The translations under genes and the position numbers were made by a program. From a virus, in the IMG/VR virus record IMGVR_UViG_3300045988_042567, positions 1 to 64,000 of that record: 64,000 nt of DNA; one strand, 5' to 3'. How positions within the stretch are numbered: the stretch's first letter is position 1; each line of letters starts with the position of its first letter. Under the pieces are notes generated by a model. It saw nothing but the letters and a program-made list of their open reading frames with translations. It did not search any database and had not been told where the DNA came from. Positions 3,220 to 58,476 of this stretch are shown piece by piece.

Positions 3220-3873
3220 ATGATAGATGTAGATAAATACAAAGCTTTATTGCAGCAGAATGAACAAGCTGAGAAATCTTCTGACTCTGATGCAGCCAGA
3301 AAGATATTGGAGGAAATGGTAGAATTAGCTGTTATGAACCTTACAGATGCAAAGGTTCCAGAGAATACTCATTTTGATAAGGTTGAAATTGGCTGTAATA
3401 GAATAACCGACTGCCTCAGCTTAGTAGGAGTTGCAAGGAATGGCAGAAGGCTTATAGTGGAGTTCAGTTTGGATTACACTAAAGCTTATGTAGGTAATAG
3501 ACGTATCGAGGTTGACTTGTCTCCAGAGGAATCTGAATTAGTAGCCTCATTAAGGACTAAGGCAACAAATAAGATGCGTCACGCTCTCAGAGAACTTATT
3601 GATAATTTTAATGTGTTCTCTTATACTTGTAACACTTTTATAGGTACTACTCGTTACGGTACTAAAGGGCAACTGATGCAAGAATTTAAGGAAATACTTA
3701 CTAAGAACATTCGTGAGGCTATTATAGACAACATCAGAGACGAGGATGATATACATGCTAGACTGTTTGAGTATGTTCCAAATCTGTATGACGAGGAACT
3801 TACATCTGGTGATATTATTGAAGTCTTAGAATCTCACGGATATCCTTCATGTGATGTTCATGTAACCAAATAA
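3220..3873 (+). CDS. hypothetical protein
   Basis: 217-aa ORF. Confidence 0.5.
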   Translation: MIDVDKYKALLQQNEQAEKSSDSDAARKILEEMVELAVMNLTDAKVPENTHFDKVEIGCNRITDCLSLVGVARNGRRLIVEFSLDYTKAYVGNRRIEVDLSPEESELVASLRTKATNKMRHALRELIDNFNVFSYTCNTFIGTTRYGTKGQLMQEFKEILTKNIREAIIDNIRDEDDIHARLFEYVPNLYDEELTSGDIIEVLESHGYPSCDVHVTK

Positions 3874-3877
3874 AACT

Positions 3878-4219
3878 ATGAAATTGTACTTTAACTTTAA
3901 AGGTAATTACATAGTAGCTAAACATAACGGTGTTGTCATTGATATGCGAACTGGTATTCCTACTGATGCTACAGCTGACGCAGTTCTCAATTCTTATAAT
4001 AAGGAGACCAGCAGTGAGTGGAGACCTGTCAATATGGCCCAATTCGGCAAAGCTATGTTTGAATTAGCTGACGGCTCTGCCCACTACGCATTCATTGATC
4101 ACCATAAAGTCAGAATCTGTTATAAATCTGATGATAAGGCTACGTATGTAAAATTTACTGGTGACTTTCCTAGATATTTCTGGAAAGGACTGTTTAAACT
4201 GATTGGCGATGTTATCTAG
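3878..4219 (+). CDS. hypothetical protein
   Basis: 113-aa ORF. Confidence 0.45.
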   Translation: MKLYFNFKGNYIVAKHNGVVIDMRTGIPTDATADAVLNSYNKETSSEWRPVNMAQFGKAMFELADGSAHYAFIDHHKVRICYKSDDKATYVKFTGDFPRYFWKGLFKLIGDVI

Positions 4220-4450
4220 AATACAATTTAATGATGGACAGGTGGTTAACGTGAATCACCAATCCATTTCATTCAAGGACGACGCAGTTCTATTGGGTCT
4301 TGGCAGTAATAGAGACCAGTTAAAACATGTAGAGAATGCTTTAATTGATGTTACTTACAAAGTACATCATACACCCCTGATAGCTGTAGAGATAGCCTGT
4401 AGTGATGTATCTCTAATTACAACTATCTGATCAGCATTCTTTCCATCTAA

Positions 4451-4523
4451 AGAGAGTCTGATGAGTCGCTGGAAATTGCGACGAAACACTTCACCGAGGG
4501 CAGGCGGTGGAGTGTCACTTTTA
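4451..4523 (+). ncRNA. hammerhead self-cleaving ribozyme (type I), predicted cleavage after C4516
   Basis: The core reads AGAGAGU-CUGAUGA-GUCGC-UGGAAAUU-GCGAC-GAAA-C. A 9-bp stem III (CACUUCACC/GGUGGAGUG) follows, then the cleavage triplet GUC. Stem I pairs AGAGAGU with ACUUUU. Confidence 0.75.
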
Positions 4524-4709
4524 ATCAATACTAATAATTATGAAGGTGGATAATATTATCATAGATATAATACTAGCATTAGGTGTTATATTTATGTTAT
4601 GTATGGCTTCTGATGATTTTACATTAATCACAGCAACCATTATGATTGTGACAGCCGTAGGTATCTGGTATATGCCAGATAGTAAATCAATTAATAAATT
4701 TAACAAGAA

Positions 4710-5315
4710 ATGAGAACATTAGAAGAAATTTTAGCGTCAGAAAGACCTCAAGTGGATGAAACTCCTAAACGCAACTATGAGGAAGTTATAGGAGAAATTA
4801 AATCTCATATGGCTAGAGCTCTTGACGAGATAGAATCGTTCAAAGAAGGTATTTCATGGGGAGTTGCAGAAGGTATCACAAAAGATACCAAACATACGGT
4901 ATATATCCTTAGAGAGGATAACGAGCCTGTATTCTGTCTGGAAATGAGTGAACCTCCTTGTATCCAAAGCCCTGAACTTACTGACAAGAATGGCGGCTTT
5001 GATATTACTGAAGAAGACGCTGCTATGTTGATAAAGGCATTTGACCGATTGAATACAAGTATAGATGTTTATAAGGAACACTTTGGAATGAATGATACTA
5101 CTAAGAAATCAGGCATTGATGTACTTAAACTCTTAAAGGAATTAGATCCAGGTACGTTTGATAAAGCTTTGGAAGAAGCGATGAACAGGACCAAGGATTT
5201 CCGTGAAGACATCATTAAGAATAAGATGAAAGAACTCGGCATTGAAGCTCCAGAAGTGGTATCCGAACTAAGAGAAGTATTTGATATTTTATTCAAGGCT
5301 AAACATGGATTATAA
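4710..5315 (+). CDS. hypothetical acidic protein
   Basis: 201-aa ORF. Confidence 0.5.
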   Translation: MRTLEEILASERPQVDETPKRNYEEVIGEIKSHMARALDEIESFKEGISWGVAEGITKDTKHTVYILREDNEPVFCLEMSEPPCIQSPELTDKNGGFDITEEDAAMLIKAFDRLNTSIDVYKEHFGMNDTTKKSGIDVLKLLKELDPGTFDKALEEAMNRTKDFREDIIKNKMKELGIEAPEVVSELREVFDILFKAKHGL

Positions 5316-5400
5316 ATCTCATAAGTTATCATAAGTAAAATATTTTAATATTCTAGGGCAGACATGTTGTGAAACACTCTGCCTCTCTTATTTATTAACT

Positions 5401-6002: not shown

Positions 6003-6650
6003 TTTATTAATAAGCTTTTAAGTCTGAAATGGGTACGCCAGTGGCACAGGAGGATACTGGAAGCTTTGGGTTGTTTCCCCACTCCTAGCATGAGAGTATA
6101 ATCATGCTACTATGGGCCATACATGGAATTGATTCATAATGACTGGGTAGTAAGACGTGTAGAGTTCGTACCAACTCTTATAAAATGATACACAAATTTT
6201 AAGTGGCAACACTGAAGTAAGAATGGCAGCGTAAGCTGTGGCTTATCGATATTATATTGATTAAGTCGGGTTAATCGGAGAGACCTAGAGACAGAAGAGG
6301 TGTGGGAAGAAGCATTATAGAGCAGCCCACTTAACTTGAACGCCAAAGGTTAGTAAAGCTGAAATCTCCACTACCTATCTATGGGTTACAAATAGACGTT
6401 CTCCAACGTAAATGGAGTGGTGGCGTGGGACTTCGGTCACTCCTAATTTTGATAGTTTGTAAGTTAGCTTTAAGTGTACTGGCTTGATCACTGTGATTTA
6501 ATTGCCTGGTTCTGAGTAAGACTAATAAAACTGTCTACATGCTGAACTCAACAGCTGATGTAATAAAATAGAGACACACGTAATCTTGTTATTTAGAGTT
6601 GTGAAGACCGCGGTTCGAGTCCGCGATGGTCCACTTATTAACTAATTAAA
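6003..6650 (+). ncRNA. ORF-free structured region of about 650 nt that ends in a tRNA-like T arm and acceptor 3' half (6609-6633); candidate large ncRNA or intron-containing tRNA
   Basis: No ORF of 60 aa or more. The region is visibly G/C-enriched relative to the surrounding coding sequence and contains many local hairpins. It ends CGCGG-TTCGAGT-CCGCG-ATGGTCC-A. Its 5' part shares the motif AATGGGTACGCC...GTGGCACAGGA with positions 288-400. Confidence 0.35.
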
Positions 6651-6660
6651 TCACTTTGAC

Positions 6661-7461
6661 ATGGAAAGAGGTAACATTGATTTTGGTAAACTTCTAAATG
6701 GAGTTACCACAGAGAACGTTTATGTTCTTACTAATGATAACCGAAAGGTTATCGAAGCTTTAAGGTTCTTACCCGGAAATAGAGAAATTAAACCTAAGAA
6801 GGTTGAGGACTTGGTGAAAGCTTATCAAAACAAGGAGTATATTCCTCCTATTCTAGTATCAACTCCTTTCAGATTTGTAACTGAAGGTAATCACAGACTC
6901 GCAGCTGCTTTGGAATGTCTTAAAAGGAATATTCCATTTACATTAAGAGTATACTTCTATGCCGACGAATCTGCATTAGAAACTGCCCGTCTCATTAATA
7001 ATACTCAGAATAGATGGAAGGCACATGACAAACTTATGTCTTATGTATATGAGAAGAAAGAACCATATATGATACTAAAACAGTTTATGGATAAGTACCC
7101 ATCTATATTTATTCGTAATGGTGAGTATATGGTACAGGCTGGCTTAAGTCTTCTTTCTGGAGGTAGGACAAGAGCATCTTTAAATACTGCATTCTCCAAC
7201 GGTAAGTTATTAATTAACGAAACTCAGTTGGAATTAGGAGAAGCTATGATGGATGAATTGTCGTTAATCTCGGAAGTATTAGGAACTCAATCTGTATACG
7301 CTAGAGACCACAGTACTGGTTGGATGAAAGCACGTACAAGACTTGGCATTCCTTTTACTAAGTTCATAGTAAGACTTAAAAGAAGAGCTACAACTTGGGA
7401 AGAGCCCAAGGACACTACTGAAGCATGGTTTAATATGTATATGAAGATAGCAAGTTTATGA
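6661..7461 (+). CDS. ParB-like nuclease-domain protein
   Basis: Carries the motif FVTEGNHRLAAAL, a ParB/Srx-like G-x-x-R signature. Confidence 0.5.
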   Translation: MERGNIDFGKLLNGVTTENVYVLTNDNRKVIEALRFLPGNREIKPKKVEDLVKAYQNKEYIPPILVSTPFRFVTEGNHRLAAALECLKRNIPFTLRVYFYADESALETARLINNTQNRWKAHDKLMSYVYEKKEPYMILKQFMDKYPSIFIRNGEYMVQAGLSLLSGGRTRASLNTAFSNGKLLINETQLELGEAMMDELSLISEVLGTQSVYARDHSTGWMKARTRLGIPFTKFIVRLKRRATTWEEPKDTTEAWFNMYMKIASL

Positions 7462-8156: not shown

Positions 8157-8183
8157 CTTAATCTTAGATAATTCTAAGCGCAA

Positions 8184-8390
8184 ACTTGGTCTGATGAACT
8201 AAGAGTATGTTCCGGAGCATACTTTGACTTAAAGGCGTTATAAAGAGTTGAAACCTGTACTATTAGAATAATGGAAAGTTCGCCCAACTAGGACTTGGGT
8301 GGCGATGGTTTGAGTCCATCATAGTATTGTGTAAGAGAGAATCTGCACGGTCTACGTTATATAATCAGCACGTAGATAGGTCATCAAGTG
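8184..8390 (+). ncRNA. candidate Y-RNA-like (YrlA-like) structured RNA enclosing a tRNA-like domain
   Basis: The 5' segment ACTTGGTCTGATGA (8184-8197) can pair with TCATCAAGT (8381-8389), leaving a GGTC bulge. Enclosed are a tRNA-like module at 8257-8328 and two further hairpins. The module has acceptor arms GTACTAT/ATAGTAT, a T arm GATGG-TTTGAGT-CCATC, and an anticodon-position loop CTAGGAC. Confidence 0.3.
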
Positions 8391-56652: not shown

Positions 56653-58476
56653 ATGTTAGTAATTAAAAGAAACAAGAGAGTAGAACCTTTCGACATTAAT
56701 AAGATTGACGCGGCTATTACTAAGGCGTTCAATGCTGTTAACGAACCAATTGATTCCGACATTTTGGATGATATTAAAGATGAATTGTATATTAACAACA
56801 TAGTATCAGTAGAAGAGCTTCAAGATCAAATTGAAAAGGCTTTGATGGCTTGTGATTACTATGATGTTGCTAAAGCATTCATTTTGTATCGACATAAACA
56901 AGCTGAACTCAGAGCATTAGCTGGGAAGAAGCAGTTTATTAAGGATTATGCCAAAGCATCTAATGCTGCTACAGGCAGTAAATATGATGCTAATGCCAAT
57001 GTTACTGAGAAGAATATAGTAACTTTAAATGGAGAGTTGTTTAAGGGTGATGTAATTAAAGTTAACAGAGCTATTCTTACAGATAAAATTAGGCAGTTAT
57101 ATGGTGAAGATTTAGCTAAGGAGTATATCAGACAACTGGAATCTCATGAACTTTATAAGCATGACGAAACATCAATTATGCCCTACTGCGTGGCTATCAC
57201 TATGTATCCGTTTCTACTTGAAGGGTTACAACCAATTGGAGGTTTGTCTGCCAAGCCTAAGAATCTGGACTCCTTCTGCGGTATGTTTGTTAATCTGGTA
57301 TTTGCTATCAGCTCGCAATTCGCTGGAGCAGTAGCTACTGGTGAGTTCCTAATGTATTTCGATTACTTCGCTCGTAAAGAGTGGGGTGATGATTATTGGA
57401 AACGTCCAGAAGAGATGGTTGATAAACATAGAAATATTGATAAGACGTTAGAGCAGAAGTTCCAACAGATTGTATATTCAATCAATCAGCCAGCAGCTGC
57501 TCGTAACTTCCAATCAGTATTCTGGAATATCAGTTATTTTGACAAGAATTACTTTGAAGGCTTGTTTGGGGAGTTTGTATTCCCTGATGGAACTAAGCCC
57601 ATATGGGATTCTCTGAACTGGTTACAGAAGAAGTTCATGATTTGGTTTAATAATGAACGCACTAAGTGTATCTTAACATTCCCTGTGGAAACTGTAGCAC
57701 TTCTTACCGATGGTGAGGATGTGGTAGATAAAGAATGGGCAGACTTTACAGCAGAAATGTATAGTAAGGGACACTCATTCTTTACTTATATGTCTGATTC
57801 GGCAGACAGTCTATCAAGTTGTTGTAGACTTCGCAATGAAGTAACTGATAATCAATTTAGTTATTCTCTTGGAGCTGGTGGTATTGCTACTGGTAGTAAG
57901 TCTGTAATGACTTTAAATATTAATAGGTTAGTTCAAGATGCAGTCAATAATGGATATGATATGATTGAGTATTTACGTGAAAACGTTCAGAAAGTTCATA
58001 AATATCAAACTGCATATAATGAATTACTCAAAGACTATTTAAATGATGGTTTACTAACTGTCTACTCTGCTGGATTCATTCATATGAAGAAACAGTATTT
58101 AACTGTAGGTGTTAATGGAGTTATCGAAGCTGCTGAGTTCTTAGGAATTCCAGTTAATGACAATCCTACTTACAGAGAATTTATGCAATCTATCCTTAAG
58201 ACTATTAGCGATGAGAATCGCAAAGCTAAGACTAAGGAGTTGATGTTTAACTGTGAGTTTGTTCCAGCGGAGAACCTGGGAGTTAAACATGCTATGTGGG
58301 ACAGGAAGGCAGGTTACTTTGTACCGAGAGATTGCTACAATAGTTACTTCTATGCTGTAGAAGACACTTCCTTGACTATACTTGATAAATTTAAACTACA
58401 TGGTAAAGATTATATCAAGTATCTTGATGGTGAACAATCGCCTGTTATATCTTTGCGTCTAACCAGACGGGTATAG
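56653..58476 (+). CDS. nrdD: anaerobic ribonucleoside-triphosphate reductase NrdD, N-terminal and catalytic part (split gene)
   Basis: An N-terminal ATP-cone (VIKRNKRVEPFDINKIDAAITKAF). It is 607 aa but lacks the C-terminal zinc-ribbon and glycyl-radical segment, which is encoded downstream of an inserted homing-endonuclease gene. Confidence 0.75.
   Translation: MLVIKRNKRVEPFDINKIDAAITKAFNAVNEPIDSDILDDIKDELYINNIVSVEELQDQIEKALMACDYYDVAKAFILYRHKQAELRALAGKKQFIKDYAKASNAATGSKYDANANVTEKNIVTLNGELFKGDVIKVNRAILTDKIRQLYGEDLAKEYIRQLESHELYKHDETSIMPYCVAITMYPFLLEGLQPIGGLSAKPKNLDSFCGMFVNLVFAISSQFAGAVATGEFLMYFDYFARKEWGDDYWKRPEEMVDKHRNIDKTLEQKFQQIVYSINQPAAARNFQSVFWNISYFDKNYFEGLFGEFVFPDGTKPIWDSLNWLQKKFMIWFNNERTKCILTFPVETVALLTDGEDVVDKEWADFTAEMYSKGHSFFTYMSDSADSLSSCCRLRNEVTDNQFSYSLGAGGIATGSKSVMTLNINRLVQDAVNNGYDMIEYLRENVQKVHKYQTAYNELLKDYLNDGLLTVYSAGFIHMKKQYLTVGVNGVIEAAEFLGIPVNDNPTYREFMQSILKTISDENRKAKTKELMFNCEFVPAENLGVKHAMWDRKAGYFVPRDCYNSYFYAVEDTSLTILDKFKLHGKDYIKYLDGEQSPVISLRLTRRV

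Follow-up and report, generated by a model that had tools for sequence, protein, structure and literature searches.

Hammerhead ribozymes of all three types flank genes in prophages, arrays of them cleave in vitro, and a triple from Agrobacterium cleaves also when transcribed in E. coli; it was proposed that they process the long transcripts of phages into shorter mRNAs (Perreault et al., 2011, PLoS Comput Biol, PMC3088659). A different class, the theta (HDV-like) ribozymes, adjoins tRNAs in gut phages (Kienbeck et al., 2024, PMC10879173), and hammerheads are not mentioned in that study. In Rfam, the type I hammerhead is represented by RF00163 (clan CL00010) and the type III hammerhead by RF00008.

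The window analysed here is the whole 64,000-nucleotide stretch of the IMG/VR record IMGVR_UViG_3300045988_042567 (positions 1 to 64,000). To judge from its sequence, the segment at positions 4451–4523 of the + strand quite probably encodes a type I hammerhead self-cleaving ribozyme, situated in a 109-nt spacer of a large tRNA-rich uncultured human-gut phage. With RF00163 it shares the catalytic core, the three-helix junction and the GUC triplet, as well as an open helix I and loop-capped helices II and III. As with the phage and prophage hammerheads of Perreault et al. (2011), its site is a short spacer flanked by co-directional phage genes whose functions are unknown, and the same role may be proposed for it, the conversion of long phage transcripts into gene-length or operon-length mRNAs. 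Unlike those elements, the window hammerhead is single in 64 kb and is not part of a flanking pair or triple. Theta ribozymes resemble it in being a small self-cleaving class found in gut phages for RNA processing, but they have a different fold and chemistry context and are tied to tRNA 3′ ends, whereas the window hammerhead is found between protein-coding genes. Phage intergenic hammerheads have thus been known since 2011, and the window element adds another.

The strand order is that of type I, i.e. helix I 5′ strand, core, helix II hairpin, GAA, helix III hairpin, C17 and helix I 3′ strand, with both ends in helix I and with loops closing helices II and III. The helix I 5′ strand GAGAGU (4452–4457) is partner to ACUUUU (4517–4522) in both the sequence reading and the fold, and the helix consists of 6 bp, four Watson-Crick and two G·U. 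The limits of the complete element, 4451–4523, take in one additional A on each side of this helix. The core nucleotides C3 U4 G5 A6 U7 G8 A9 (CUGAUGA) occupy 4458–4464. The helix II hairpin (4465–4482) is formed by GTCGC at 4465–4469 and GCGAC at 4478–4482 (GUCGC/GCGAC in the RNA) around an 8-nt loop, TGGAAATT, at 4470–4477 (UGGAAAUU in the RNA). G12 A13 A14 follow at 4483–4485 and, together with A15.1, make up the GAAA at 4483–4486. The helix III hairpin (4486–4515), seen in both sequence and fold, has 11 bp, including A15.1-U16.1 and C15.2-G16.2, and an 8-nt loop; it consists of A4486-T4515, then CACTTCACC (4487–4495) with GGTGGAGTG (4506–4514), which contain one G·U pair, and then G4496-C4505. 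The cleavage triplet GUC is at 4514–4516, and C17, the position after U16.1 in canonical numbering, is C4516, which places the predicted scissile bond at C4516/A4517.

The hammerhead-defining core is therefore complete in C3–A9, G12 A13 A14, the A15.1-U16.1 pair (A4486-U4515) and H17 (C4516), and the core-adjacent pairs G10.1-C11.1 (G4465-C4482), C15.2-G16.2 (C4487-G4514) and A1.1-U2.1 (A4517-U4457) are canonical. An earlier reading made from the sequence only had described all invariant core nucleotides in the correct type I order on the + strand, CUGAUGA at 4458–4464, helix II with its 8-nt loop, GUC at 4514–4516 with a cut after C4516 and a helix I of about 6 bp from the flanks, and direct reading of the sequence agrees on each of these, the cut itself being a prediction. 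Two of its details need correction: the GAAA is present but had been put at 4482–4485, one base off, and the 9 bp given for helix III exist but fall short of its full length by A4486-T4515 and G4496-C4505. When positions 4445–4530 are folded alone, the minimum free energy structure is exactly the hammerhead three-way junction (−27.3 kcal/mol, z = −2.8). By every feature of sequence and structure open to examination here the element is a real type I hammerhead, with predicted catalysis.

Rfam does not report it. Scanning the whole window at the gathering score yields tRNAs, a tmRNA and RAGATH-34 but no hammerhead (RF00163, RF00008 or RF02276), and no hammerhead is reported window-wide at E ≤ 0.05. 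The sequence-only reading had expected a significant covariance-model hit with the cut after 4516, and that expectation failed. On a 301-nt stretch, the only match from the hammerhead clan is a mis-permuted one to RF00008, which reaches 20.8 bits where the gathering score is 48.5. That this model alone gives a hit is due to the core-plus-helix II segment, CUGAUGAGUCnCUGAAA..GnGACGAAAC, which comes very close to the RF00008 consensus; the alignment rests on the core and helix II and imposes an incorrect permutation. Since the window element has a capped helix III and an open helix I, helices I and III have to be broken for it to align with RF00008.

The same behavior is seen with related elements. 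None of 18 family hammerheads in 17 related phage loci reaches the gathering score, and the sole RF00163 score obtained, in E-value mode, is 31.2 bits against a gathering score of 34, from a member with a short helix III (L016). Because clear family members with covariation also fall below threshold, the Rfam miss is read as a sensitivity limit of the models and not as a refutation. The low RF00163 score is likely a consequence of the 11-bp helix III and 8-nt loop II, which exceed the compact 45-position model.

The family was retrieved from IMG/VR contigs with a pattern in which core and helix II are fixed and the loop is free, CTGATGAGTCGC N4-14 GCGACGAAAC. The pattern matched 50 phage contigs. 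In about 40 of these the type I hammerhead is complete, with helices I and III unlike those of the window in sequence yet always complementary. Though the loop was left free, most hits have loop II as UGAAAAUU or a near variant of it, comparable with UGGAAAUU in the window. Most members also have a 6-bp helix I with an unpaired A on each side, as in the window. Thus the loop (UGRRAAUU) and the A residues flanking helix I are conserved in the family. In hammerheads, fast cleavage at physiological Mg2+ comes from a tertiary contact between helices I and II; no particular contact or covariation between the conserved loop and these A residues emerged.

In an alignment of 29 of these sequences, 96.5% of cells form standard pairs. 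CUGAUGA is invariant in 29 of 29, which is not independent evidence, these bases being fixed by the retrieval pattern; the GUC triplet is invariant as well. The covariation score is 0.62, compared with 0.13 for column shuffles (0 of 500 reach 0.62) and at most 0.14 for slid controls with partners shifted by 1–3 columns. Changes on both sides are found at 10 of 17 pairs, with helix I contributing 6 of 6 and helix III 4 of its 6 modelled pairs. A covariance model made from this alignment detects, in these loci, more hammerheads whose helix II has another sequence. Among 57 hits obtained from the covariance model alone, with the window's clade excluded, helix II covaries at 4 of 5 pairs. In the MAFFT alignment A4 the 3′ strand of short helix III hairpins is misplaced, and the model-guided alignment A5 was used for the model.

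The model built from these 57 hits (R2), again with the window's clade left out, gives the window element 59.5 bits over model positions 1–61, with E about 4e-18 by a rough calibration, and the runner-up site in the 64 kb scores 11.3 bits; since the window's own helix II served to retrieve the family, the helix II identity and part of the R2 score are not independent. Helices I and III and the overall architecture, as read from the aligned sequences, are independent of the retrieval pattern. A custom type I scan of both strands returns 4451–4523 as the sole type I candidate in the window, and two covariance models agree that the hammerhead is present in a single copy.

With regard to placement, about 18 of the 29 hammerheads overlap a stop codon of their own strand by up to 9 nt or begin no more than about 3 nt behind one, and a candidate open reading frame start is found within about 75 nt downstream in about 21 of the 29. 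The window element fits this layout, after a stop codon and before an open reading frame. It is a member of a widespread phage intergenic hammerhead family missed by Rfam thresholds, and is not a new kind of element. Neither the helix II nor the loop sequence, searched as exact strings, turned up in the papers of the library covered. Loci retrieved by the hammerhead pattern are ribozyme-rich and, like those of Perreault et al. (2011), can carry several hammerheads each, e.g. eight of type I in L008 and six in L043. Pistol ribozymes are found in L043, L048 and L049, a twister-P5 in L012, a near-threshold type II hammerhead in L016 and RAGATH-36 in L050.

At the window locus, the upstream open reading frame (4203–4430, + strand) encodes 75 aa with no family match and ends in a TGA at 4428–4430, 21 nt before helix I. 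The position of this stop is constant in relatives and the length of the open reading frame varies. Downstream, 17 nt separate the end of helix I from a 57-aa open reading frame (4540–4713, + strand), hydrophobic by inspection, whose stop overlaps the ATG of open reading frame 4710–5315 in ATGA. This 57-residue gene is called by independent gene callers in four related contigs (among L057–L061). As it starts at 4540, the true intergenic gap is 109 nt (4431–4539) and not the roughly 280 nt of the earlier reading. In a 221-nt fold, C17 and the helix I 3′ strand (4516–4523) pair with 4541–4548, which overlaps the AUG region of the 57-aa open reading frame; this helix is weak, with 8 bp, two G·U pairs and a 17-nt loop.

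Pfam and PHROGs tell nothing about what the flanking genes do. Ten neighbouring open reading frames show no Pfam match, and PHROGs yields for these ten only a ParB-like assignment for 6661–7461 and an unnamed phrog for 1546–2328. A megablast search with 3800–5400 against deposited phages gave no match. The NrdD sequence encoded in the window is 92% identical to that of an unannotated human-faecal phage record, MT835470, and less than 60% identical to anything else deposited. The phage occurs in hundreds of samples, and many of its contigs originate from human faeces.

The element is kept in all 11 syntenic relatives (L001–L006, L057–L061). These are 95–100% identical in nucleotide sequence to the window over most of the region and are therefore too similar to yield covariation at the locus. 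A search with the 201-aa downstream protein found no distant orthologues; all 82 hits are at least 82% identical, which leaves no divergent syntenic loci for a covariation test of the ribozyme or of the competing hairpin described below. The five relatives added after this search (L057–L061 of the 11) are likewise almost identical in 4409–4560, and this block is nearly invariant even where the upstream open reading frame and the downstream gene differ.

Five singleton variants fall inside the 73-nt element when the window and its 11 relatives are compared. With C4494U the pair is retained as G·U, and U4520 is the window's own variant, being C in 11 of 11 relatives (G·U in the window, G-C in the relatives). 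The other three are disruptive: G4454A gives a helix I mismatch, G4468A a helix II mismatch, and A4485G changes core A14 to G in one relative (L005). Each is seen once, and they fit either rare deleterious alleles or sequencing errors. Variable sites are about as dense in the element as in the adjacent conserved sequence, and no less so, and for this reason selection for ribozyme function finds no independent support at the locus.

From its homology to characterised hammerheads, cleavage of the folded RNA is expected between C4516 and A4517. In a polycistronic + strand transcript, helices I, II and III would assemble around the core of CUGAUGA, GAA, the A-U pair and C17, and the 2′-OH of C4516 would attack its own phosphate. 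The upstream mRNA, which carries the small-gene block ending with open reading frame 4203–4430, would receive a 2′,3′-cyclic phosphate end; it would retain nearly the whole ribozyme, and the stable helix II and III hairpins could cap a structured 3′ end. The downstream mRNA would start at A4517 with a 5′-OH and an A/U-rich leader, 23 nt before the AUG of the 57-aa open reading frame (4540). Cleavage would in this way uncouple the fates of the two halves of the transcript. The sequence-only reading had the cut separating an upstream block of small genes from the gene at 4710; the upstream side agrees, with open reading frame 4203–4430 ending 21 nt before helix I, but the next gene is the 57-aa open reading frame at 4540. 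We infer catalytic activity, transcription through the + strand and effects on mRNA stability or translation, and the processing of a long phage transcript into shorter mRNAs appears the best-supported role by analogy with the described phage hammerheads.

A reading that accepts the hammerhead by descent but supposes that it is held off, or is conditional, in the real transcript is rather unlikely and is the alternative that survives best. It concerns a predicted hairpin whose 5′ arm (4430–4442, + strand) would pair with 4451–4462, i.e. with the helix I 5′ strand and core C3–U7. Positions 4430–4434 (AUCAG) would pair with 4458–4462 (CUGAU) and 4436–4442 (AUUCUUU) with 4451–4457 (AGAGAGU), resulting in 12 bp with one bulged C; helices II and III persist. 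This hairpin would be transcribed first, and cleavage would be rare, or would occur only once the hairpin is melted, for example by a ribosome terminating at the UGA of 4428–4430. The first base of the arm is the last base of the upstream stop codon, and a terminating ribosome would therefore be expected to melt it.

The alternative fold is predicted at −35.9 kcal/mol against −27.3 kcal/mol for the hammerhead fold, and is thus about 9 kcal/mol more stable, and in every context that includes 4425 onward its probability is 0.6–0.9 and that of helix I about 0. These nearest-neighbour energies leave out hammerhead tertiary contacts and Mg2+. The probability of helix I was considered as a statistic for the competitor and set aside as uninformative, as shuffled upstream sequences also suppress this weak helix, most of them out-competing it in silico, and the cost of enforcing the hammerhead fold was used in its place. 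With 50 nt of upstream context this cost is 10.4 kcal/mol in the window, a value reached by 1 of 100 upstream shuffles, and 6.8 kcal/mol in the relative L002 (2 of 100 shuffles as high), whereas in 26 other family members it is 0.1–7.4 kcal/mol with a median of about 1, none being significant. These statistics are post hoc and modest, from an energy model that ignores tertiary contacts, and a p of about 0.01–0.02 for one clade among 28 elements is not robust. The single variant seen in the competitor arm, C4432U in L059, keeps the pair as G·U, and the near invariance of 4409–4560 among relatives with differing flanks is also in line with a held-off element. Against it, the alternative hairpin has no covariation support and no other family member shows a significant competitor. 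Taken from the fold predictions, the competitor hairpin may act as a regulatory switch or keep the ribozyme off, or it may be coincidental. A pseudoknot between GGAAA of loop II (4471–4475) and UUUCC (4440–4444) was also considered and rejected; the upstream complement is absent in other members, including L044 with the same loop.

A more specific form of this idea, which we consider improbable, is that the 21-nt spacer after the stop codon evolved into an anti-ribozyme arm (4430–4442), with cutting only after the upstream open reading frame has been translated. On this model the arm would trap helix I and core C3–U7 in the 12-bp hairpin upon transcription, and a ribosome terminating at UGA 4428–4430, its footprint assumed to lie over most of the arm, would free the ribozyme to fold and cut. 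If this were true, the wider family, with helix I typically beginning at the stop codon or within a few nt of it, would show the inverse arrangement of the same ribosome-ribozyme coupling. The in vitro construct suggested by the sequence-only reading, 4430–4560, includes the competitor arm and could yield a false negative.

Another alternative takes the G+C-rich helix III hairpin (4486–4515), with the CACUUUUAAU that follows it, as an intrinsic terminator, in which case the resemblance to a hammerhead would be incidental or vestigial. A consensus scan does give one terminator-like site here, with a stem of 11 bp (6 of them G-C), a loop of 8 nt and CACTTTTAAT as its tail, but 0.5 such sites are expected by chance in the 1.6-kb stretch scanned. 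The hairpin is thus present, and the tail CACUUUUAAU passes the loose scan; its U tract is just 4 U in the window, however, and is interrupted in 11 of 11 relatives, where the tail is CACUCUUAAU and the broken U run is CACTCTTAAT. A terminator leaves CUGAUGA, helix II, GAA and the complementarity of helix I unexplained. Moreover, about 40 other type I hammerheads match the element, often with a helix III of just 4–6 bp and no U tract. A terminator is accordingly very doubtful.

Chance was evaluated on both strands of 6000 random 64-kb sequences with the dinucleotide statistics of the window. A relaxed type I motif (helices of at least 4/3/3 bp) appears in 174 of them (2.9%), a motif with helices of at least 5/4/5 bp in two, and one of the observed quality (at least 6/5/8 bp) in none. 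A match without function, for which one could cite the Rfam models' silence and a motif so short and degenerate that its relaxed version turns up in about 3% of such windows, is scarcely credible and is excluded as a mere chance motif by this test and by the phage family, given helices of a length never reached in the random windows, the agreement of loop II, of the A-flanked 6-bp helix I and of genomic placement with an independent family, the score from R2, and a G+C content in the element of 52% as against about 36% genome-wide.

Other RNAs are found in the window. RAGATH-34 (RF03103) is at 8164–8261 with 86.7 bits, and its last 5 nt are shared with the beginning of a tRNA at 8257–8328 (52.1 bits in Rfam; tRNA-Pro with anticodon AGG by ARAGORN). 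RAGATH-34 is the second-best window hit of both hammerhead models because its hairpin loop has CUGAUGA and its tail GAAAC. A tmRNA match (RF00023, 58.3 bits, E = 2.8e-20) at 6114–6636 spans 523 nt for a 374-position model, and ARAGORN does not call a tmRNA there; the centre of the match, 6310–6509, shows 53–60% identity among relatives that are otherwise 95–99% identical. About 28 tRNA genes, all on the + strand, are distributed among protein-coding genes over 26 kb (10355–36511). The window also encodes the anaerobic ribonucleotide reductase NrdD (56653–58476), adenylosuccinate synthetase, a DnaB-like helicase and an SPFH/Band 7 protein. The tRNA set together with NrdD and the other genes would suit a large phage whose host is an anaerobe of the gut. 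The whole window has 43 copies of the heptamer CTGANGA on the + strand and 10 on the − strand, which is probably a codon-usage effect, since every sizeable open reading frame in the window is on the + strand.

An amber-suppressor tRNA (anticodon CTA) is called by ARAGORN at 12768–12840. After it, the 3′ end of the segment at about 12843–12921 resembles a tRNA T-arm and acceptor strand, and directly thereafter, at 12922–12985, there is a sub-threshold match to the HDV-like ribozyme RF02682 (38.1 bits where the gathering score is 44; E = 0.0018). The layout of 12768–12985 is that of the theta ribozyme beside a tRNA described for recoded gut phages (PMC10879173). This arrangement hints that TAG may be reassigned in the phage, and if so, open reading frames listed under table 11 could be incorrect for late genes.

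For annotation, the window provides a bona fide-looking ribozyme that goes unreported in standard Rfam annotation, as does a sizeable family of type I hammerheads in phages; such elements are recoverable with the covariance model R2 or the alignment A5. What is known of hammerheads would be left unchanged unless the competitor hairpin turns out to be regulatory. For phage biology, the element would be a further case of putative ribozyme-based mRNA processing in a tRNA-rich gut phage, one that also carries a RAGATH-34 RNA, a tmRNA, an amber-suppressor tRNA and a candidate HDV-like ribozyme.
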